Source of the DNA: an uncultured Dehalococcoidia bacterium
Lineage (GTDB): Bacteria; Chloroflexota; Dehalococcoidia; DSTF01; RBG-16-68-14
Reading direction: 5' to 3'
Assembly: GCA_964406605.1 (NCBI GenBank)
Contig: CAYOSF010000004.1
Location: forward strand, 36,322 to 100,321
Length of the DNA: 64,000 bases
The notes beneath the pieces were generated by a model, which ran no database searches, was not told the DNA's origin, and worked only from the letters and a program-made list of their open reading frames with translations. Numbering within the stretch: the stretch's first letter is position 1; each line of letters opens with the position of its first letter. Positions 3,510-54,036 of this stretch are shown piece after piece. Made by a program: the position numbers and the translations under genes.

Positions 3510-4709
3510 ATGACTGACGCCGCCCTGTCCGGCCTGACGGTGGTCGAGCTGTGCGGAACGATCGCCGGGCCCTACTGCACCAAGGTCCTGGCGGATCTCG
3601 GGGCCCAGATAGTGAAGATCGAGGAACCTGCCGGAGGCGATCCGGCCCGGCGTGCGGGTCCTTTCCCGAAAGACAGCCCGCACCCTGAGCGCAGCGGTCT
3701 TTTCCTCTACCTCAATACGAACAAGCTGGGCGTCACACTCGACGTGACGAGCGCCACGGGCCGACATCTCCTGCTCGAGCTGCTGCGGGACGCCGACGTG
3801 TTCGTCCAGGATCTACCGCCGGGCGAGGCGGATGACCTGGGGATCGGCTACGAAGCGCTGGCGGATTCCCACCCGAAGCTGGTCGTCACTGCCATCTCTC
3901 CATACGGAGCATCGGGCCCCCACCGTGACTGGCGGGCCTATCACTTGAACCTGTACCACGGTAGCGGTCACTCTTCCTTCTTCTATCAGGACCCGCGGGA
4001 GGCGGCGAGAGGTCCGGTAGTCGGGGGCGGAAACGTCGGCGAGTACGATGCCGGCCTGGCGGCGGCCCTGGCAACCCTCGCGGCCGTTCTCGGGCGCGAG
4101 GCGACAGGTCGTGGACAGCAGGTGGAGGTGTCCAAGCAGGAGGCTCTCGTGGCCTTGGAGAGGGTTGAGATCGGCCGCCTCGCCAACGACCCCATCCCGA
4201 TGAATCGCCCGGGAATGGTCGGTGGGCTGGTGCGCTCCCGCGACGGCTACGTTGTGATAACGGCTGCCCAGGACGGCCAGTGGAAGGGTCTGGTGAAAGC
4301 GATGGGCAGCCCCGCATGGGCCGAGGACGAGAGCTGCCGTGACGAGAAGAGCCGCTCGGACAATCGAGACGAGATCCAGCGTCGGATCGAGGAGTGGGCT
4401 GCCGGGCTCTCCAGCGATGAGATCTATCGCGTGTCGCAAGAAAGCAGCACGCCTGTCGGCCCGGTGCGCACCGTGGCCGAGGTGATGGCATGGCCGCAGG
4501 CGCGCCAGAGGGGTTTTTTCGCCGAAATTGAGCACCCGGAGGTCGGCCGCCTCGAATACCCCACAGCGGCCTACCGCTTTTCTGAGACCCCCTGGCGGGC
4601 GGAGCGACCGGCGCCGCTTCTTGGTGAACACAACGAATCGGTCTTCTGCGGGAAGCTCGGGCACGCGCGAGCCGACCTGGTGCGTTTGCGAGCGGCTGGA
4701 GTGATCTGA
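3510..4709 (+). CDS. CoA-transferase family III (CaiB/BaiF-type)
   Basis: MTDAALSGLTVVELCGTIAGPYCTKVLADLGAQIVKIE, the classic family III N-terminus, with full-length similarity. An in-frame upstream ATG at 3474 is also possible. Confidence 0.8.
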   Translation: MTDAALSGLTVVELCGTIAGPYCTKVLADLGAQIVKIEEPAGGDPARRAGPFPKDSPHPERSGLFLYLNTNKLGVTLDVTSATGRHLLLELLRDADVFVQDLPPGEADDLGIGYEALADSHPKLVVTAISPYGASGPHRDWRAYHLNLYHGSGHSSFFYQDPREAARGPVVGGGNVGEYDAGLAAALATLAAVLGREATGRGQQVEVSKQEALVALERVEIGRLANDPIPMNRPGMVGGLVRSRDGYVVITAAQDGQWKGLVKAMGSPAWAEDESCRDEKSRSDNRDEIQRRIEEWAAGLSSDEIYRVSQESSTPVGPVRTVAEVMAWPQARQRGFFAEIEHPEVGRLEYPTAAYRFSETPWRAERPAPLLGEHNESVFCGKLGHARADLVRLRAAGVI

Positions 4710-4711
4710 CG

Positions 4712-5971
4712 ATGGTTGAAGCAGAGGTCAAGGGAGGTCCCCTGGCAGGAGTCAGAGTGCTTGACTTCACGTGGGCCTGGGCCGGACCCCACGGGACGTT
4801 GCTGCTCGGTCTCCTGGGGGCGGAAGTGATCAAAGTCGAGAGCAGAAGCCGACTCGACCATACGCGGGTTCGGTCGCTGATGACCGGCCCAACGATGACC
4901 AGTCCCGATCACTCGGCCATCTTCAACGATCTGAACGTCGGCAAACTGAGCCTGAGCCTGAACCTCAAGAAGCCGAGGGCGGTGGAGATCGCCCGGGAGG
5001 TGGCAAGGCACAGCGACGTGGTGACCGCGAACATGAGGCCGGGCGCCCTGGATCGACTGGGCCTGGGCTACGAGTCGCTGCGGGAGGTGAAGCCGGACAT
5101 CATCGTGGTATACTCCTCGGCCGTCGGTAGCACCGGGCCCGAACACACCTACGTAGGATACGCGCCCACCTTCGCCGCGCTGGGCGGCCTCTCCTCGATC
5201 ACCGGACACCGGGGCGGCATGCCCAACCCACACAGCGGCGCGGTCGACCTGCGGGTGGGTACCACGTGTGCATTCGCCGTTCTGGCCGCGCTCTACCATC
5301 GCCGGCGAACGGGCGAGGGACAGTTCATCGATATCTCCTCGGCGGAAGCGGTGAGCGCCCTTATCGGCGGCGTCTTCATGGAGCCTGCCATGAACGGGCG
5401 AACGCCCACTCGGGACGGCAACCGCGATCCATCGATGGCGCCGCACAACTGCTATCCCTGCCGGCGCAGCAAGAGCGCGTCGGGTGCGAACGAGGCAAGG
5501 CAGGAATCGCTGAGCATCGCCGTGGGCTCCGACGGGGAATGGCGGTCGCTCTGCGGGGTGATGGGCCGGGACGATCTGGCGGATGACACAAGGTTCGCCG
5601 ACGTGGTGAGCCGGTATCGGAACCAGGAAGAGCTGGACGCCATCATCTCGGCGTGGACGCGGCGGAGGACGGCCCAGAAGACGGCCGATAGACTGCAGAA
5701 GGCAGGCGTCGCGGCCGTACCGGTGCTCTCGGGCAACGGCCTGACGCAGGACCGCCACATTCGAGCCAGGCATGTTATCGACAAGGTTGAGCACCCGGTC
5801 CTCGGACCACAGTTCGTTCTGGGAGTCCCTTGGCGGCTTTCCGATACGCCGGCTGCCGTCCGCCGCCCCGCTCCCTGCCTGGGAGAGCACAACAGCTATG
5901 TGCTGGGAGAGATCCTGGGTATGGCGGAGGAGGAGATCGAAGCGCTGATCCGCGACGGCGTGGTGGCCTAG
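4712..5971 (+). CDS. CoA-transferase family III (CaiB/BaiF-type), tandem paralog
   Basis: GVRVLDFTWAWAGPHGTLLLGLLGAEVIKVE. Starts 2 bp after the stop of the preceding paralog. Confidence 0.8.
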   Translation: MVEAEVKGGPLAGVRVLDFTWAWAGPHGTLLLGLLGAEVIKVESRSRLDHTRVRSLMTGPTMTSPDHSAIFNDLNVGKLSLSLNLKKPRAVEIAREVARHSDVVTANMRPGALDRLGLGYESLREVKPDIIVVYSSAVGSTGPEHTYVGYAPTFAALGGLSSITGHRGGMPNPHSGAVDLRVGTTCAFAVLAALYHRRRTGEGQFIDISSAEAVSALIGGVFMEPAMNGRTPTRDGNRDPSMAPHNCYPCRRSKSASGANEARQESLSIAVGSDGEWRSLCGVMGRDDLADDTRFADVVSRYRNQEELDAIISAWTRRRTAQKTADRLQKAGVAAVPVLSGNGLTQDRHIRARHVIDKVEHPVLGPQFVLGVPWRLSDTPAAVRRPAPCLGEHNSYVLGEILGMAEEEIEALIRDGVVA

Positions 5972-6128
5972 TAGCAGCGGACAATCGCCAGACGCGGCGG
6001 CCCAAGCATTCGCTCCGTGACGCGCCGTCAGAGGCAATTCCCGGGAACGAAGAAAAAGATCCCTCAGACCGTGTAAGAATTCCGCGCCGCACCTGTCATA
6101 CCGGTGACACCAAGAAAGGAGGCGTAGG

Positions 6129-6731
6129 ATGAACGCCATCATAAAGGTCACCGGTCTCATGGTCATGGTAGCGGCGGGGTACATCGGAATAGCTGGAGGC
6201 GTCGTCCAGGCGGCACCGGGGCCCGAAGAGGCGCAGATGGAGCGGATCACCGACCCGTGCATGGTGCTCGCGGACTGCATCCAGATCGATCCCTGTCTCG
6301 TCGTGGATTGTGACGATGAGCCGGCCGTTGAGCCTGCTGACGACCCGGCCGTTGAGCCTGCTGACGACCCGGTCGTTGAGCCTGGTGACGACCCGGCCGT
6401 TGAGCCCGGCGACGACCCGGCCGTTGAGCCTGGTGACGACCCGGCCGACGATCCTGGGGACGACCCGGCCGACGACCCTGGGGACGATCCCGGAGACGAC
6501 CCGGGCGACAATCCGGGCGACGATCCTGGAGACCACCCTGGTGACCAGCCGGGCGGTGACCCTGGGAACCAGCCCGGGACCAGCTCTCTGCCCGACGCCG
6601 GCACCGGCGACGGCGCCCCGGCCCAGAACAGCCAGGGAGTCATCGTTCTCGCCGCACTGGGCATCGCGGGCATCGCGATCCTGTTCGCCATGTTCGTGGC
6701 GTTCCGGAGCAAGGAATCGTCCGCACGCTGA
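6129..6731 (+). CDS. Secreted/anchored acidic tandem-repeat protein (Asp/Pro-rich)
   Basis: N-terminal hydrophobic signal/TM. Five 8-aa repeats (DDPAVEPA/G), then about twelve 4-aa repeats (DDPG/DDPA). C-terminal LPDAGTG...hydrophobic helix...RSKESSAR tail. Confidence 0.5.
   Translation: MNAIIKVTGLMVMVAAGYIGIAGGVVQAAPGPEEAQMERITDPCMVLADCIQIDPCLVVDCDDEPAVEPADDPAVEPADDPVVEPGDDPAVEPGDDPAVEPGDDPADDPGDDPADDPGDDPGDDPGDNPGDDPGDHPGDQPGGDPGNQPGTSSLPDAGTGDGAPAQNSQGVIVLAALGIAGIAILFAMFVAFRSKESSAR
6304..6590 (+). repeat. In-frame tandem repeats (24-bp x5, then 12-bp x~12) inside CDS 6129..6731
   Basis: Repeating gacgacccggccgttgagcctgstgac units followed by gacgayccbggv units, read directly from the sequence. 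Confidence 0.7.
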
Positions 6732-20852: not shown

Positions 20853-22208
20853 ATGGTAGTGGTCATGAGGCAAGTGGAGAGCGTGGCTGTGGGCGCGAAG
20901 GCGTGCAACTTGGCGGAGCTAGAGCCCTATGTCCGAGCGCTGGAGACTCTGGCGACGCAAGCCCGCCCTGTGGGTGTAAGCACGGGCAGCGCTGATTGGA
21001 TGTCGAAGGTGCTTGATGGGCAGCCCAGCGGGGAGCTGAAGAGAGTTGTTCCGCTGGAGAAAAGAAGGGAAATGGGCGCGTTCTTCACCGGGAAGGCGCT
21101 GGCAGGCGAAACGGTAGCGCCATGGCGGCAGAAGCTCACGCGGCAGGCGAGGATAGTTGACCCGGCGTGCGGTGCGGGAGATCTTCTGCTTGCATGTGCG
21201 CGGTCATTACCAACGCATGAAACACTCAGAGAGACCTTGTGGCAATGGGGCCGCCAGGTATTCGGGTTCGACTTGCATCCGGAGTTCGTGCGGGTGACCA
21301 AAGCAAGGCTAGCCCTGCTGGCCGCCCAGCGTGTACGCCGAGACAGTAGAGTGGTGATCCCTCCGCTTGATCAGATGTTCCCGAATGTGCAGGTGGGGGA
21401 TGGCTTGGGCGATGTGTACGATGCGGTCCGCCCGACGCACATCGTCTTGAACCCTCCGTTCCAGAGAGCGGAGGCCCCGGACTGGTACACGTTGGGGAAT
21501 GGTCTGGTATCGCGCGCGGCGGTGTTCGTTCAGAGATGGCTGTTGGAGGCAGAGTCAAAAACGGAGTTCGCCGCAATCCTGCCTGACGTACTGAGGACGG
21601 GAGCCAACTACGCGAGCTGGAGAGCGTGGGTGGAAAGGCAGAGCGCGAGCCGCGAGGTGAAGGTGCATGGAGCCTTTGACTCCGAGGCGGATGTGGATGT
21701 GTTCATACTTCGGGTGGTATGCGGCTCGAGGAAGGAAGCCGATGAGACTGGCTGGTGGCGGGGAGGGCCGGCGGAGCAGGGATGCGTAGGCGAGCGGTTC
21801 AATGTGCACGTGGGATCCGTGGTGCCGCACAGAGACGCGAAAATGGGGCCTTGGCGTGCGTTTGTCACCACGCGGGTATTGCCACGCTGGGGTGTGGTGA
21901 GGGCTGATAAGAGCAAGAAACGCCGATATCGCGGCCGAACGTTCTCGCCGCCGTTCGTGGCGATACGCCGCACATCAGCACCCGGCGACAGGAAGCGGGC
22001 TGTGGGTACGATTGTCACAGGTGCGATTCCTGTGGCGGTAGAGAACCATCTTATCGTGGCCGAGCCGCGTGACGGCTCAGTTCAGAGCTGTCGTGGGTTG
22101 CTGGATGTGCTGCATTCAGACGAGAGCGATCGGTGGTTCGACGAGCGAATACGGTGTAGACATCTGACGGTGTCGGCGGTGGCCGAATTGCCGTGGCGGA
22201 GCTGGTAG
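20853..22208 (+). CDS. N6-adenine DNA methyltransferase (gamma-class amino-MTase)
   Basis: Motif I DPACGAGDLL (AdoMet binding), motif IV IVLNPPF ((N/D)PP(Y/F)). No TRD/REase fused. Alternative ATG 12 nt downstream. Confidence 0.8.
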   Translation: MVVVMRQVESVAVGAKACNLAELEPYVRALETLATQARPVGVSTGSADWMSKVLDGQPSGELKRVVPLEKRREMGAFFTGKALAGETVAPWRQKLTRQARIVDPACGAGDLLLACARSLPTHETLRETLWQWGRQVFGFDLHPEFVRVTKARLALLAAQRVRRDSRVVIPPLDQMFPNVQVGDGLGDVYDAVRPTHIVLNPPFQRAEAPDWYTLGNGLVSRAAVFVQRWLLEAESKTEFAAILPDVLRTGANYASWRAWVERQSASREVKVHGAFDSEADVDVFILRVVCGSRKEADETGWWRGGPAEQGCVGERFNVHVGSVVPHRDAKMGPWRAFVTTRVLPRWGVVRADKSKKRRYRGRTFSPPFVAIRRTSAPGDRKRAVGTIVTGAIPVAVENHLIVAEPRDGSVQSCRGLLDVLHSDESDRWFDERIRCRHLTVSAVAELPWRSW

Positions 22209-22209
22209 G

Positions 22210-24258
22210 ATGACGACCGACTACCTCAAGTTCTCTCCAGACATTCTGCGCCGGCTGGGCGAAGAGCTTGTGCCTCAGCCGGAACAGGGCATCGTAGAGC
22301 TGGTGCGAAACTCATACGATGCGGACGCCGTAAGCTGCACTGTGGAGATCAACGACGCGGGGGGGCCAGGAGGAGCGGTTTGCGTCACTGATGACGGCGT
22401 GGGCATGGATGTCGAGGCGATCAGCTCTGGGTGGCTGGTAGTGGGACGGTCGCCAAAAGTGGGGCGGCAGGTCACCGGGCGGGGGCGCTATCCTGTAGGG
22501 GACAAGGGGCTTGGGAGACTGGCCGCACTGCGCATGGGGCGGTTCGCCGACCTGGCGACTCGACCCAAGCGGGATCCGGGGAAGCAGTTCCGCCTGGTAA
22601 TCGACTGGGTGCGCGTAGACAGCGCGACTGTAGTGGAAGGCGTTCCATTCGAGATCAAGGAACAAGAGACCAGGGAGCCCCCTGGAACGACGATCGAGAT
22701 CAGGGACCTCCACGTTGCGCTGGGGCGGAGAGAGGTGAACCGGCTAGCGCGGTCACTGCTTCTACTGGCGGATCCCTTCGATGACTCGACTGGATTCCAC
22801 CCGCAACTTGTGGCACCAGCCTTCAGTGATCTGGAGAAGCGTGTGCGGGAGTCCTATTTCGCGGAAGCGGATCACAAGCTTGTGGCGAGCTTGGACGAGG
22901 CCGGTAGAGGTCAAGCGGAAGTAGTGGACTGGAAGAATGAAGTGCTGTGGAAGGCTGCACACGAGGATTTGAGCGACCGGCCGTACGAAGCGCCTGCTGC
23001 AACCTTCGAGTTGTCGGTCTTCCTTCTGGACTCCAAGACGTTCTCTTCGCGCTCGGTATCACTGCGGGAAGTCAGGCAATGGCTCCAGGTGGTGGGCGGT
23101 GTCCACCTGTACCATAGGGGACTTCGCGCACATCCGTATGGCGATCCCGGCCACGACTGGCTGGAGATGAATCTCCGAAGGGCAAGAAGCCCCGAAGAGC
23201 GCCCTTCTACGAACACGTCGATTGGCCGGGTCGTCGTCCCGGATCCTGGAGAGCACCTGATACAGAAGACGGATCGAACGGGCTTCATAGAGAACGAAGC
23301 TTTCGGGGAGCTCCGTGGCTTTTGCACAGACGCTCTGGATTGGATGGCGAAAGCGCGACTGCGTGCAAGAGAACGGGGCCGGCAGAAGGAGAGAGTGGGG
23401 GCGTCGCGGTCGGTGGTACGTGCGCGCGAGTCAGTCAAGCACGCCATGGACGAGGTGCCCGTACCGGTGCGGAGGTCGGTGGAAAAGGCGGTGGAGCGCC
23501 TGGATCGTGCGCGTGACAGAGAGTCAAGAGCGCTCAGGGAAGAGCTGCAGCTGTACAGAACGCTGGCTACTGTGGGGACGACGGCCGCAGTCTTCGCTCA
23601 CGAATCGGCGAAGCCAGTTTCTCAGATCGAGAGGACGGCCAGGATCATCGAGAATCGCGGGCGTAGGCTGTTGAAGGAGCGGTATGCAGAAGAGCTGGAG
23701 AAGCCCGTTGGCCTGGTCATTCGGTCATCTCAAGCTCTGCGGAGTTTTGCCGCGCTGCCGCTGAGTCTTCTCAAGCGGGAAAAGCGAAGGGTGGGTCGCG
23801 TGGACGTGCATGCGGTCATCGGGGATGTTCATGATCTCTTCGAACCGTTCCTGACGGACGCTCGCATACGGGTGGATCTTGAACTGACGCAGCAGATCCC
23901 TTCGATAAGGGGGAGTGCTGCAGCGCTTGAGGCCATAGTGGCGAATCTGCTTACTAACGCGGTAAACGCTTTCGCAGCTCAGTCTGGCAAGGTAGCGTCG
24001 CGCCGAGTGGTGATTCGTACAGAACTCTCGGGAGACAGACTGCTCCTGCGAGTCATGGACAATGGACCGGGAATCACGGACATAAGCGTAGACGACATCT
24101 GGCTGCCTGGCCAGAGCACCGTGCCTGGTGGCACAGGCCTGGGGCTTACGATTGTGCGCGACTCGGCGGTGGACCTTGGCGGGAGTGCGCACGCACTGGC
24201 GCATGGGGAGCTGGAGGGTGCCGAATTGGTAGTTGAGCTTCCGACTATCGGAGCGTAG
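22210..24258 (+). CDS. Cytoplasmic GHKL-ATPase (MORC/MutL-like Bergerat fold) fused to a histidine kinase core (HisKA-like + HATPase_c)
   Basis: N-terminal ELVRNSYDADA N-box, DDGVGMD and GDKGLG. C-terminal H-box-like VFAHESAKPVSQI, N-box LLTNAVNAF, DNGPGI, GGTGLGLTIV. No TM segments. Starts 2 bp after the MTase stop. Confidence 0.75.
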   Translation: MTTDYLKFSPDILRRLGEELVPQPEQGIVELVRNSYDADAVSCTVEINDAGGPGGAVCVTDDGVGMDVEAISSGWLVVGRSPKVGRQVTGRGRYPVGDKGLGRLAALRMGRFADLATRPKRDPGKQFRLVIDWVRVDSATVVEGVPFEIKEQETREPPGTTIEIRDLHVALGRREVNRLARSLLLLADPFDDSTGFHPQLVAPAFSDLEKRVRESYFAEADHKLVASLDEAGRGQAEVVDWKNEVLWKAAHEDLSDRPYEAPAATFELSVFLLDSKTFSSRSVSLREVRQWLQVVGGVHLYHRGLRAHPYGDPGHDWLEMNLRRARSPEERPSTNTSIGRVVVPDPGEHLIQKTDRTGFIENEAFGELRGFCTDALDWMAKARLRARERGRQKERVGASRSVVRARESVKHAMDEVPVPVRRSVEKAVERLDRARDRESRALREELQLYRTLATVGTTAAVFAHESAKPVSQIERTARIIENRGRRLLKERYAEELEKPVGLVIRSSQALRSFAALPLSLLKREKRRVGRVDVHAVIGDVHDLFEPFLTDARIRVDLELTQQIPSIRGSAAALEAIVANLLTNAVNAFAAQSGKVASRRVVIRTELSGDRLLLRVMDNGPGITDISVDDIWLPGQSTVPGGTGLGLTIVRDSAVDLGGSAHALAHGELEGAELVVELPTIGA

Positions 24259-49219: not shown

Positions 49220-49957
49220 CTAAGGAGCCGCGCCGGGCGGCTGGGCGAGCGCCTCCTGCTGGACCTCCAGCAGCTCGCGAATGCCGGCCTCCGCGAGGAG
49301 GAGGAGGGCGTCCATCTCCTCGCGCGGGAAGGGCTGGTCTTCGGCGGTGCCCTGCACTTCGACGAAGCGGCCGTCGCCGGTCATCACCACATTGAAGTCG
49401 ACCCCGGCTCGGGCGTCCTCCTCGTAGCAGAGATCGAGCAGGGGCACGCCCTCGACGATGCCGGCGCTGGTGGCGGCGACGGCGGTCGACATCGGCACGG
49501 AGGTAAGGACTTCCTTCTCCACCAGCTTCTCGAGCGCCTGGTGCAGCGCGACGTAGGCGCCGGTGATGGACGCGGTGCGGGTGCCGCCGTCGGCCTTGAT
49601 GACGTCGCAGTCGATGGTGAAGGTGCGCTCGCCGAGGATGTCAAGGTTGGTGACGGCGCGGAGGGCTCGGCCGATGAGGCGCTGGATCTCCTGGGAGCGT
49701 CCGGACGGACGGCCGGCGGCCGCCTCGCGGCCGGTGCGCTCCTTCGTTGAGCGAGGGAGCATGCCGTACTCGGCGGTGACCCAGCCGGAGCCGGTGCCAC
49801 GGAGGAACTGGGGCAGGCGGGCCTCGACGGTGGCGGCGCAGAGCACCTGGGTGCCGCCCAGATCGATCAGGGCGGAGCCTTCGGCCCACGGGAGGTAGCC
49901 GGTGGTGATGCGGACCGGGCGGAGCTGGTCAGGCCTGCGGCCGTCCACACGTTCCAT
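49220..49957 (-). CDS. rph: Ribonuclease PH
   Basis: [15 protein letters not shown]…GSALI…GTQVLC…[18 protein letters not shown], full-length RNase PH. Confidence 0.9.
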
Positions 49958-50041
49958 GATGGGGGGAGTATAGCACGGACGGGGGGCGTCGCAGTCGCGG
50001 GAGGCGGCGGGGGCACATGGGAAGCCGCTGGCTCCTTGTCG

Positions 50042-50605
50042 CTACTCGGCCGTGGGGGGTGGGGCCTCCTCTCCCTCCGTGCAGGTGATCTCGCCGTCCT
50101 GGATCGCCGCGACGACGGGCTGAGGGTCGCCGATGGTGGCGTCCGCGAAGACGTCGATGGCGATGGCGAGGGGGCTCGAGCCGGCGGCGGCGCAGGTGAA
50201 CTCCACCGTCGCTAGGACGGTATCGCCCTCGTTGCCGTAGGCGGTGGCGCCGGCGACCCGGACCGTGGTGTCATCGTACGCGGGGTTGCAGACGCTGCCG
50301 GCGAACGGTGGACAGTCCACGATGGTGATCACAGCGGGGTCGTAGGTGATGTCGGCGGTCCAGGCGCCCAGCCCGGGCGCGGGAAAGCCGGTCACCTCCA
50401 GGTCCACCGAGCCGTCCTCGCCGACGGCCAGCGAAGCCGAGCCGACGGACAGTACCGGGGCGTCCGGGCCGGGAGTCGCGGCGGCGGCCTCGCCATCGGG
50501 GCTCGCCGTGCCGCCCGAGTCGGATTCTTCCTCGCCTCCGTTTCCGCAGGCCACCGCCAGCGCGAGCGCAAGCGACAGCAACAGGACCGTGAACAATCGC
50601 ATCAT
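50042..50605 (-). CDS. Lipoprotein with cohesin-like domain
   Basis: Lipobox LALAVAC. VLSVGSASLAVGEDGSVDLEV…YDPAVITIVD…GDTVLATVEFTCAAAGSSPLAIAIDVFADATIG follows the cohesin beta-sandwich sequence pattern. Starts at tandem ATGs (50605/50602), with a GAGGGAGA RBS. Confidence 0.55.
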   Translation of the reverse strand: MMRLFTVLLLSLALALAVACGNGGEEESDSGGTASPDGEAAAATPGPDAPVLSVGSASLAVGEDGSVDLEVTGFPAPGLGAWTADITYDPAVITIVDCPPFAGSVCNPAYDDTTVRVAGATAYGNEGDTVLATVEFTCAAAGSSPLAIAIDVFADATIGDPQPVVAAIQDGEITCTEGEEAPPPTAE

Positions 50606-50698
50606 TGCGTCTTCTCCCTCAGTGCGGCGCTCAGCGGCCGCGGGCCGGCGGAGGGCCTCCCCGGCCTCCGAAGTCCATGCTGGGGCGAGTATAGCACC

Positions 50699-51724
50699 AT
50701 GAGACATGATAGGGGGTTGACAGAGGCGAACGAACATTCTACTATGGCGCTTGATGACTGTCTTTGCCTTGGCATGGCCAAGTCGACGGCCTGTGTAGTA
50801 GTCCCCATGCAGAAAGGACGTTCTTTGCCATCCACCATTCGAATTGTGGGGCCTGACGGGCATGGCGTACCTGGTGGAGGGGGAGCTACGCATCATGACC
50901 TGCGCTTGGGTGACGCGCGCCAGCTTAGCTGGGTCCCAGATGGGTCGGTCCATTTGGTCTTGACCTCACCTCCCTACTGGACCCTGAAGAAGTACAACGA
51001 CCATCCCGATCAGCTAGGCAATGTGACTGACTACGAGACTTTTCTCAACGAGCTTGACAAGGTATGGACGCACTGCTATCGGGCCTTGGTGCCGGGCGGC
51101 CGACTGGTCTGCGTTGTTGGCGATGTGTGCTTGGCCAGACGAAGGAACGCCGGACGCCACATGGTGGTTCCGCTGCACGCAGACATATCAACACGATGCC
51201 GGCGGATAGGGTTCGACTACCTCACGCCGATCCTCTGGCACAAGATTGCCAATGCAAGCTATGAAGTGGAGAACGGTTCATCCTTCTTAGGCAAGCCCTA
51301 CGAGCCGAATGCGATAATCAAGAATGACATAGAGTACGTCCTAATGCTGCGAAAACCTGGAGGGTACCGGAAGCCTACGGAAGAACAGCGAGGTCGTTCG
51401 AAGCTGTCCAAGGACGAGCACCGGCGATGGTTCAGGCCAATCTGGGCTGACCTTCCGGGTGCTTCAACGCGGGATCACCCAGCTCCGTTCCCACTTGAAC
51501 TGGCCTATCGGGCCATTAGGATGTTCTCTTTTGTCGGCGACACAGTGCTCGATCCCTTTGTCGGCACTGGCACCACGGTAGTGGCGGCCATACGCGCGGA
51601 GCGGAACTCCGTGGCGAGTGAGGTTGACCCCCAATACCTTCAAATGGCTGAGCGTGCCGCCAGGAAGGAGACTTCCCAGCAGCGCCTCTTCGGTCTTTCG
51701 GCAGTCATCGATCCGGATCTGTGA
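50699..51724 (+). CDS. DNA methyltransferase, beta-class (motif IV before motif I), probably N4-cytosine-specific
   Basis: LVLTSPPYW (SPPY motif IV) N-terminal and DPFVGTGTT (FxGxG motif I) C-terminal. Markedly lower GC than surroundings. Alternative start ATG at 50762. Confidence 0.7.
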   Translation: MRHDRGLTEANEHSTMALDDCLCLGMAKSTACVVVPMQKGRSLPSTIRIVGPDGHGVPGGGGATHHDLRLGDARQLSWVPDGSVHLVLTSPPYWTLKKYNDHPDQLGNVTDYETFLNELDKVWTHCYRALVPGGRLVCVVGDVCLARRRNAGRHMVVPLHADISTRCRRIGFDYLTPILWHKIANASYEVENGSSFLGKPYEPNAIIKNDIEYVLMLRKPGGYRKPTEEQRGRSKLSKDEHRRWFRPIWADLPGASTRDHPAPFPLELAYRAIRMFSFVGDTVLDPFVGTGTTVVAAIRAERNSVASEVDPQYLQMAERAARKETSQQRLFGLSAVIDPDL

Positions 51725-52652
51725 TTGCCGAAAAGCGAGACACGTAGAACTGGACCACGCGCCGCAAGAAAGTCTCATAGTGGTCCCGATCACCTGGCTG
51801 TGGAGCGGGTGGCGCCGTCCACAGCGTCACCCCACCCTGATTGTCGCAATCTACGACAAGAGAGGCGTACGCGTCGAAACCCACCGTACCAACGGCGTCG
51901 CGAAGCGGAAGGCCTCGAAGATGCTGGATCATGCCCGCTGCGGCATCGGGCTGTCTATGGGGCGTGACAGTCAACGAGTGGCGATCACGCTGGCGCAGAG
52001 GTGAGACGAACGTCTCCGCAATGTTGACTACGGTGATGCCAGCGGCAATTGCGTTGGGATTGCCTTGGTGCACAATCTGATGGGATGAACTCAGTTCGTC
52101 ATAGACGCGCGGTTTCGATTTCGCGTGCTCTGTCATGACGGACTTGGCCTCGCAGGACACGAAGACCTCAGCCGGTGCACTCTTGGCTATCGCTCCGCCG
52201 GGAGCTGGATGTGCTTTCGTATGGCCACCAGATTCCCGGGCGGCCGGCGAATCGTCACTCCGCGCCGAGACCGGGGGTTCGGCAGGTGGCCCAAGGACCA
52301 AGTCCAGCGTCTTGGTCTTGCTCGTGGACGGCGACGTGAACTTCTCATTGATGCCGTACACTACCAGTCCTTGTGCTGCCTGATTCCTGAGAAGCGGACA
52401 CGCGTCGATGAGGTCTTCCAGTATGTAGGTGCAGAGGGCAATCGAGTGAGCGTCGCTTCGTGGGTGGTACCGGTAGACATGGCCGAGGCCGTTGGTGTGG
52501 GAGTGGTGGCTCATCCAATCCGCGAACTTCTCGGGAGCTGGCATCAGCTTAGGATAGGACTGGTGCGATGGAGGAGGCAAGGCGCTGCCCTGTGCTGTCA
52601 CTGGGGTGGACATTCCCCCGAACCGCATGGAGTGGGTATAGCCTTGCATCAC
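51705..52652 (-). CDS. Putative type II restriction endonuclease (convergent partner of the MTase)
   Basis: Convergent with 20-bp 3' overlap to the MTase gene. Low GC. Possible PD-(D/E)xK-like block (…DLVLG…EVFVSCEAK). No confident family match by eye. Confidence 0.35.
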   Translation of the reverse strand: MMQGYTHSMRFGGMSTPVTAQGSALPPPSHQSYPKLMPAPEKFADWMSHHSHTNGLGHVYRYHPRSDAHSIALCTYILEDLIDACPLLRNQAAQGLVVYGINEKFTSPSTSKTKTLDLVLGPPAEPPVSARSDDSPAARESGGHTKAHPAPGGAIAKSAPAEVFVSCEAKSVMTEHAKSKPRVYDELSSSHQIVHQGNPNAIAAGITVVNIAETFVSPLRQRDRHSLTVTPHRQPDAAAGMIQHLRGLPLRDAVGTVGFDAYASLVVDCDNQGGVTLWTAPPAPQPGDRDHYETFLRRVVQFYVSRFSAITDPDR

Positions 52653-52744
52653 CTAGGGGATTCCCCGATTCCGCGCCTGTCATTCGGGCCGCATAATGGC
52701 GGGGTCGGACGCGGCCTCGGCCGCGTGCCGTGCGAATCAGGCAC

Positions 52745-53032
52745 ATGAAACAGTTCCTGGCAGTCATGCGATACGCGCTCGATCACCGGCCCGCGCTGCT
52801 GGTGACGATGCTGTTGCCGGTGCTGGTTACGATGCTGGTCGCGGTGGCCGCGCCCACGGTGCCCACGATGGTGGCGGCGTTCATCGCCGTGCCAGCGGCG
52901 ATGGCGGCCTGGGGCGGCGGCATGCTGGCCGGCAAGCTCCACGAGCAGGAGTCGACGCCGTTGACGAGCGGTATGAGCGAGGAACCGCCGGCGGCGGACG
53001 AACCGGCCGAGCGGCGGAAGCGGGCCGCCTAG
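52745..53032 (+). CDS. Small hypothetical membrane protein
   Basis: Two hydrophobic helices (LLVTMLLPVLVTMLVAVAA / MVAAFIAVPAAMAAWGGGML). Weak support. Confidence 0.3.
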   Translation: MKQFLAVMRYALDHRPALLVTMLLPVLVTMLVAVAAPTVPTMVAAFIAVPAAMAAWGGGMLAGKLHEQESTPLTSGMSEEPPAADEPAERRKRAA

Positions 53033-54036
53033 CTCTCGGATCGGCCGCCGGCCGCAGCCTCCGATTCCTCCAGAGCGATTTCCCTGCGGATCTCGTCCGG
53101 GTCCACGGTCCCGGGCGGCTTTTCTTCGTGCACGAGGCGGCTCGCGATCCGCTGCAGTGCGCTGTTCGCCGGTGTGGGCACGCCGTGGAGGCGGCCGAGG
53201 AGAGCGATCTCGCCGTTGAGGAAGTCGACCTCGATGGAGCCGGCGCCGCGGGCGAGGCTTTGCCAGGAAGAGCCGCCGAGCCGCCGGCGGTTGCCGGCTC
53301 TATCCATGCGGAGCACGTTCCCGCGCCGCTCGCGCACCTCCTCCGCCGAGGCACAGTCGATGCCGGCGGCGCGATAGCAGGCGAGCGCCTCGTCGCGGAG
53401 ACGGCGCACGATGTCGCCGATGTCGGCGCCGAGGCCGCAGGCCGCCTGAAGCGCGTTGCCGACGTTCATGAGCAGCTTGGCGTACTTCCAGCGCATGATG
53501 TTCTCGTAGACGTGTGAATCGAAGGTGGAGGCGTTCAGGTCGCCGGCGACGCGCGCGGCAAGCCGGTCGGCGCCATGCGGGAAGCATCCGATGTCGAGCA
53601 TACCGGTGGTGGGCCAGGAGTTGGCCCGGACGACGCCGGGCTCCAGGTGGGTGGCGGGCAGCATGACGACGACGCCGTAGACGGACCGGAAGCGCCGGAG
53701 CGCGAGGCGCTCGTTCGCTACGCCGTTCTGGGCGCAGAAGACGGGAACCGCATCGCCCGCAGCGGCCCGGAGGTCGACGAGCGCTCGTTCGGTGTCCTGC
53801 CCCTTCATCGTGAGGAACACGACATCGTCGTCCCGGAAGTCGATCTCGGAAGGGTGGGCGACGACTGGTACTGGAAGGGCGACGGTCTCTTCCGGGGACT
53901 CGAGCGTTAGGCCCCGCTCTCGAATCGCGGCGAAATGTTCGCCCCGGGCGATGAGGACGGTATCGCGCTCGTGCTGGAAGAGCCGGCCACCGATGACGCC
54001 TCCGACGGCCCCGGCCCCGTAGATGACGTAGCGCAT
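53029..54036 (-). CDS. 2-dehydropantoate 2-reductase (ketopantoate reductase, ApbA/PanE family)
   Basis: MRYVIYGAGAVGGVIGGRL Rossmann N-terminus …K…N…E family blocks. Confidence 0.7.
   Translation of the reverse strand: MRYVIYGAGAVGGVIGGRLFQHERDTVLIARGEHFAAIRERGLTLESPEETVALPVPVVAHPSEIDFRDDDVVFLTMKGQDTERALVDLRAAAGDAVPVFCAQNGVANERLALRRFRSVYGVVVMLPATHLEPGVVRANSWPTTGMLDIGCFPHGADRLAARVAGDLNASTFDSHVYENIMRWKYAKLLMNVGNALQAACGLGADIGDIVRRLRDEALACYRAAGIDCASAEEVRERRGNVLRMDRAGNRRRLGGSSWQSLARGAGSIEVDFLNGEIALLGRLHGVPTPANSALQRIASRLVHEEKPPGTVDPDEIRREIALEESEAAAGGRSES

Follow-up and report, generated by a model that had tools for sequence, protein, structure and literature searches.

TTHA0409 (M.TthA0409) of Thermus thermophilus HB8, solved as PDB entries 2ZIE, 2ZIF, and 2ZIG, has been described as a dimeric DNA methyltransferase (MTase) and, in PMC5173035, as a putative N4-cytosine enzyme. 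The closest structural neighbor of the MTase of CfrBI, a two-gene type II system (CCWWGG, m4C), is TTHA0409 (bioRxiv 10.64898/2025.12.04.692298). For TTHA0409 itself, no published target sequence or cognate nuclease was found in the literature searched, and a search of the literature for a Thermus m4C methylome returned nothing useful.

Among nucleases, the restriction endonucleases (REases) of the CCGG family (NgoMIV, Cfr10I, Bse634I, SgrAI, Ecl18kI, and PspGI) share an R-(D/E)-R recognition motif that lies shortly C-terminal to the catalytic Lys. Cyclic tri-AMP activates NucC, an effector nuclease of CBASS and type III CRISPR systems whose gene accompanies that of a cyclase. Here, we describe a TTHA0409-type MTase gene that overlaps the gene of a nuclease in a 64-kb stretch of DNA (the window, which denotes the whole stretch that was analyzed). 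In our view, the pair is highly likely to be an orthodox type II restriction-modification (R-M) cassette of foreign origin.

Layout of the cassette

Both open reading frames (ORFs) were recovered where a sequence-only reading of the window had placed them: the MTase ORF at 50699-51724 (+), 341 aa, and the nuclease ORF (ORF2) at 51705-52652 (-), 315 aa. The convergent 20-bp overlap of their 3' ends is exact, with TGA stop codons at 51722-51724 (MTase) and 51705-51707 (ORF2). The lipoprotein and panE-like neighbors were also recognized correctly, as a cohesin-domain lipoprotein gene on the left (50042-50605, -) and an ApbA/PanE-family gene on the right (53029-54036, -); ORF2 and the ApbA gene are separated by a further gene, which encodes a 95-aa membrane protein and has host-like GC3. 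The features of the locus are as follows.

50606-52744, no strand: low-GC island holding the two-gene cassette, bounded by high-GC3 host genes
50699-51724, + strand: MTase gene, beta-class DNA amino-methyltransferase; 341 aa as annotated, probable coding sequence (CDS) 50807-51724, 305 aa
50717-50745, + strand: sigma-70-like promoter TTGACA-N17-TACTAT, candidate MTase promoter; 10/12 consensus matches, inside the annotated MTase 5' extension
50963-50980, + strand: catalytic motif IV TSPPYW, residues 89-94; S90, P91, P92, Y93, and W94 invariant among homologues
51551-51577, + strand: AdoMet-binding motif I DPFVGTGTT, residues 285-293; D285, P286, F287, G289, T290, and G291 invariant
51696-51733, no strand: imperfect palindrome, 38 bp, centered on the 20-bp overlap of the 3' ends; 19-nt arms, 84% complementary
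51705-52652, - strand: predicted type II restriction endonuclease gene (ORF2); 315-aa ORF, probable CDS 51705-52544, 279 aa
52143-52304, - strand: PD-(D/E)xK catalytic core, D117 to E168-A-K170; D117 in TLDLVLG (beta-2), E168-A-K170 in CEAKSVMTEH (beta-3)
52443-52469, - strand: invariant N-terminal block YHPRSDAHS; Y, H, R, S, D, and H invariant across the superfamily

Both annotated ORFs are probably over-long at the 5' end, because in either family the homologues begin at the position of M37 (nt 50807 in the MTase, nt 52544 in ORF2). Public gene calls give 341 and 314 aa, and the over-long segments correspond to 50699-50806 and 52545-52652. MTase homologues begin 25 to 35 residues before the conserved H66, equivalent to M37 (nt 50807); the annotated N-terminal 36-63 residues of the window MTase are not conserved and are probably untranslated. 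Together with the near-consensus promoter inside the annotated 5' extension, these homologue starts make 50807-51724 the likely MTase CDS. Judged by match to the consensus alone, three sigma-70-like sites occur in the region, with 0.5 expected from shuffles.

The palindrome reads TCCGGA at its center and is without a U-tract. The predicted RNA fold has an energy of -27.9 kcal/mol on the + strand (z -3.3) and -25.3 kcal/mol on the - strand (z -2.1). Because the palindrome lies on the overlap, the MTase and ORF2 end in near-identical peptides (AVIDPDL and AITDPDR, respectively, each followed by the stop). More speculatively, the palindrome may serve both transcripts as a two-way hairpin terminator or as an RNA stabilizer.

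The methyltransferase and its modified base

The product of 50699-51724, METHYLTRANSFERASE, matches PF01555 (N6_N4_Mtase) with an E value of 1.7e-36 and 126.7 bits against a cutoff of 26.7, in an alignment spanning model positions 1-220 of 221. It also matches the PADLOC type II MTase models (MTase_II; E 8e-62) and PDB entry 2zie (TTHA0409; E 4.8e-114), the latter with ~70% identity over residues 66-323, target-recognition region included. With the translation verified, TSPPYW precedes DPFVGTGTT: motif IV lies ~190 residues upstream of motif I with the target-recognition region between them, which is the circularly permuted beta-class order that the sequence-only reading had recognized. The protein is thus a beta-class DNA amino-MTase.

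The MTase family is very large (at least 8,000 candidates scored, all at E <= 1e-10) and tightly conserved, with 71-85% identity in the best 120 matches. This conservation includes the target-recognition region between the motifs, which argues for a single shared specificity across the family. Two close homologues, P0184 (404 aa) and P0210 (373 aa), carry an N-terminal HTH_17 domain (PF12728), which suggests that those variants regulate their own transcription; the domain is missing from the window copy.

Given the R-M reading, the MTase probably modifies N4 of cytosine. Motif IV shows the Ser-for-Asp replacement (SPPY/F) of the N4-cytosine subgroup in an invariant SPPY, a feature that is a correlate of specificity and not proof of it. 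The N4-cytosine assignment also draws on the contrast between the SPPY of N4CMT and the DPPY of CcrM (PMC10406627), on the published description of TTHA0409, and on the exchange of this partner for C5-cytosine MTases in relatives of the cassette (see below). Because both partner MTase classes modify cytosine, the protected base is very probably cytosine.

The nuclease family and its linkage to methyltransferases

The sequence-only reading had assigned ORF2 to no clear family and had noted a possible PD-(D/E)xK-like block. The first observation agrees with the searches, in which ORF2 had no match in Pfam, NCBIfam, or PADLOC at E values up to 1, none among PDB sequences by single-sequence (phmmer) or profile searches, and no significant Foldseek match in the PDB. 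The second is borne out by D117 (nt 52302-52304) and E168-A-K170 (nt 52143-52151), both verified by translation and conserved in the family. ORF2 has the alpha-beta-beta-beta-alpha-beta core fold of the PD-(D/E)xK superfamily, and in the model the corresponding residues D81 and E132-A-K134 lie on strands E77-85 and E129-136. Across 14 family sequences, down to 27% identity, the D and K are invariant and the E/D is nearly so; a disordered insertion between D117 and E168 is specific to the window copy. Thus, ORF2 has a nuclease fold with the conserved triad D117, E168, and K170.

The family signature is YH(P/S)RSDxHS plus D...ExK-x3-T-x-H, and the YHPRSDAHS block may play a part in recognizing DNA or in the active site. 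At 50% identity the family forms ~700 clusters, with >1,000 members in >10 phyla and on archaeal plasmids. Long members are fused to an FAD-oxidoreductase or a resolvase fragment, and none to an MTase; these fusions are probably gene-call artifacts.

Gene context was sampled at 70 loci with relatives from species-representative genomes and at 3 from plasmids, 64 of them with a full-length homologue. The loci span Planctomycetota, Acidobacteriota, Chloroflexota, Bacillota, Actinomycetota, Gemmatimonadota, Verrucomicrobiota, Armatimonadota, Pseudomonadota, and a haloarchaeon. An MTase was linked to the nuclease homologue in every evaluable locus (63/63; the remaining locus of the 64 lies at a contig end and is not evaluable). 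Most often this was a TTHA0409-type MTase within 400 bp (52/64), with 41 pairs convergent, 9 in the order MTase-then-nuclease, and 2 in the order nuclease-then-MTase; in two more loci it lay at 0.6 or 3.2 kb. In the other nine (9/64), a PF00145 C5-cytosine MTase replaces the TTHA0409-type partner, and all nine nucleases are divergent (28-38% identity). Gene order, phylum, and even MTase class vary, yet the nuclease gene retains an MTase neighbor, the pattern that marks a cognate restriction enzyme; this strict linkage is the strongest evidence for the R-M reading.

A Vsr gene is present in three of the nine C5-MTase loci, among them those on RefSeq plasmids from Sinorhizobium mexicanum and Rhizobium phaseoli. 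These nuclease-Vsr-Dcm cassettes occupy 4019-6390 of locus L073 (S. mexicanum pEmeITTGR7b), 4001-6390 of L074 (R. phaseoli pRphaN841c), and 6001-8784 of L065. The nuclease homologues on the rhizobial plasmids are labeled "hypothetical protein" in RefSeq, and the cultured rhizobia that carry the cassettes, R. phaseoli N841 (CP013560) and S. mexicanum ITTG R7 (CP041240), would be convenient strains for finding the recognition site of the family.

On a plasmid of Haloferacaceae archaeon XH8 (L075), a TTHA0409-type MTase gene (39-833; 55% identity) and a nuclease gene (4001-4738; 30% identity) are separated by 3.2 kb that holds other ORFs, and the nuclease has D-A-K for E-A-K. Loci L059, L066, and L068 to L072 hold only short nuclease-gene fragments (e.g., 6001-6123 in L070 and 3292-3414 in L071), sometimes beside an apparently full MTase gene. 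Such fragments would fit decay of the nuclease with the MTase left behind as an orphan, although some may reflect contig ends or divergence.

The interpretation of the locus as a type II R-M pair is therefore supported by the identity and motif order of the MTase, the fold and triad of ORF2, and the 63/63 linkage. As in type II systems, the MTase and the endonuclease are encoded by separate, adjacent genes, here convergent with a 20-bp overlap; no ATPase/translocase, helicase, or specificity subunit (marks of type I and III systems) is present in either protein or in the flanking genes. We infer that the MTase would methylate a short target sequence in host DNA, with N4 of a cytosine the most likely position, and would probably act as a dimer as does its solved homologue TTHA0409. 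ORF2 would be a standalone Mg2+-dependent PD-(D/E)xK endonuclease with a metal site formed by D117, E168, and K170, making a sequence-specific cut that is blocked by methylation, so that the same sequence would be cleaved when unmethylated, e.g., in incoming phage or plasmid DNA. No C protein is present at the cassette, which suggests that expression may be controlled by the convergent layout and the junction hairpin instead.

Two other accounts of the pair were weighed. An R-M pair whose MTase methylates adenine N6 instead of cytosine N4 is improbable. Beta-class PF01555 includes many m6A enzymes, the partial NCBIfam matches are adenine MTases, homologues are labeled "adenine-specific" by JGI, and RsrI, CcrM, MboIIA, and DpnA are among the PDB matches, mostly via the motif I region; yet motif IV is an invariant SPPY, whereas the cited m6A beta-class enzymes have DPPY, and the next best PDB match after TTHA0409 is the N4-cytosine enzyme N4CMT. 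The pairing of divergent nuclease-family members with C5-cytosine MTases likewise implies cytosine in the protected site. That same pairing bears on an even less credible account, in which the MTase in effect stands alone and ORF2 is a nuclease of a different type: type IV methylation-dependent, repair, toxin, or a NucC-like signal-activated effector. A solitary MTase is at odds with linkage at 63/63 evaluable loci, and a pairing that outlasts changes of gene order and MTase class is what typifies cognate R-M partners. A nuclease that depends on methylation could not coexist with a linked MTase, and in C5-MTase loci a separate Vsr gene already supplies repair. Nor does a NucC-like role fit, as no CD-NTase or CRISPR cyclase gene was found in the window neighborhood or in the gene contexts listed.

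Within the type II reading, we tentatively entertain a broader proposal, which we hold at somewhat less than even probability: the ORF2 family would be a widespread group of biochemically uncharacterized type II REases outside the profile libraries, with an MTase partner swapped between N4-cytosine and C5-cytosine types. If this is true, the specificity of the family could be new, and assigning it would give the long-orphaned TTHA0409 structure a target sequence.

Composition, recognition-site searches, and comparison with known systems

The pair has a GC content of 0.587, the lowest among all 1954-bp segments of the 64 kb (mean, 0.656; standard deviation, 0.029). The island at 50606-52744 has a GC content of 0.598, and its 3-kb flanks have 0.664 and 0.684. 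The GC3 profile that the sequence-only reading had proposed as a check gave 0.64 for the MTase and 0.66-0.67 for ORF2, compared to 0.86-0.91 for the neighbors (lipoprotein, RNase PH, small membrane protein, ApbA, MBL, and ComEC). The claim of lower GC than the flanks thus held, but its description of the codons as AT-rich was too strong, since the absolute GC content of both genes is still high.

The cassette is very probably of foreign origin, acquired from another organism. Relatives of RNase PH place its host in Chloroflexota, as a Dehalococcoidia-like metagenome-assembled genome. That the acquisition was recent is suggested by third-position composition, by the patchy phyletic spread, and by the absence of the pair from three relatives (L084, L085, and L086) whose RNase PH is 84-85% identical. 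In these relatives, the RNase PH-HIT side is syntenic with the window and the opposite flank is wholly different, so that no strict empty site is definable. Because this flank differs while the HIT side is conserved, that side of RNase PH appears to be a variable region in the lineage. Upstream of RNase PH (compare window 49220-50605), the relatives carry either His_Phos_1/DUF2344/CNNM genes or acetyltransferase/glycosyltransferase genes. An empty-site search via ApbA relatives in metagenomes gave a best identity of <=58% and no synteny, and a search of a phage collection gave no match.

An old resident, with its lower GC held by strong sequence constraint, or an inactive and decaying cassette would offer an alternative to recent gain, which we judge unlikely. 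The MTase family is unusually conserved (71-85% identity across phyla), which could hold composition, and no empty site was found; the cassette borders show no mobility genes, with no convincing flanking direct repeats and no adjacent tRNA or integrase found. However, the GC deficit is greatest at third codon positions, where protein constraint is weakest, and the pair is missing from the three relatives despite the similarity of their RNase PH. Decay is countered by the state of the genes, as neither ORF is disrupted and every family-invariant residue is retained in both.

Recognition-site searches covered palindrome depletion in 622 kb of host DNA from 58 loci, in 103 kb from m5C-type hosts, and in the window, and gave no specific signal from which a site could be assigned. 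The most depleted palindromes were AAGCTT (ratio, 0.35) and CAGCTG (0.49), in a pattern that was patchy among loci and shared by several other palindromes; depletion of CTAG was generic. No palindrome was enriched upstream of R or M genes, as a possible autoregulatory site, among 43-46 loci. We note that CAGCTG (a PvuII-type site) is absent from the window outside a 20.8-26 kb low-GC island (0 observed against 18.9 expected under a maximal-order Markov model), its only copies, at 23548, 24426, 25296, and 25740, all lying inside that island. This absence suggests long-standing avoidance by the host and is not attributable to the R-M pair at 50699-52652.

The sequence-only reading had also counted at least two independent methylation modules in the window. 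A second MTase-like ORF does exist, at 20853-22208 (+), although the evidence for it as a methylation module is weak: the 451-aa product has an NPPF motif, no Pfam match, and weak matches to PADLOC type II MTase/mad2 models (E 8e-9). One nucleotide further on begins a gene whose 682-aa product has two GHKL ATPase domains (HATPase_c_3 N-terminal and HATPase_c C-terminal) and weak PADLOC "REase_II" matches. Together, these genes (20853-24258, +) make up a defense-like module, unrelated to the R-M pair, in another low-GC patch (GC ~0.60).

The cassette itself is ordinary and marks a small defense island in the host genome, leaving the general understanding of R-M systems unchanged; what is mildly new is a nuclease from a widespread family that is unnamed in public annotation libraries. 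This >1,000-member family of "hypothetical proteins" can now be annotated as type II restriction endonucleases, and the TTHA0409-type MTase, solved structurally with its function unassigned, gains a cognate enzyme. That m4C and m5C partners have been exchanged clearly illustrates the modular way in which R-M systems evolve.

Set against described systems, the two genes are convergent, while those of CfrBI are divergent and share a promoter, and the Pfam search gave no CfrBI-type nuclease match for ORF2. REases of the EcoRI/NgoMIV branch (NgoMIV, BbvCI, PspGI, Bse634I, AgeI, SgrAI, and BsoBI) show ~10% identity to ORF2 and no profile-level match. ORF2 is without the CCGG-family R-(D/E)-R motif; K134 is followed by SVMTEHxKSxPRVYDE in all members, so that the likeness is in fold only, and unlike the enzymes of this branch ORF2 has its own invariant YH(P/S)RSDxHS block. 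In contrast to NucC, its conserved partner is an MTase and not a cyclase. On Sinorhizobium and Rhizobium plasmids and in several metagenome-assembled genomes, divergent homologues of ORF2 (28-38% identity) occur in the layout of Dcm-Vsr-restriction enzyme cassettes, whereas the window copy is paired with an unrelated amino-MTase of the N4 type and has no Vsr. The absence of Vsr fits this pairing, as m4C does not deaminate to thymine. Finally, the window MTase resembles TTHA0409 in family, beta-class order, and SPPY motif and, unlike TTHA0409 as described in the literature searched, has a linked nuclease.
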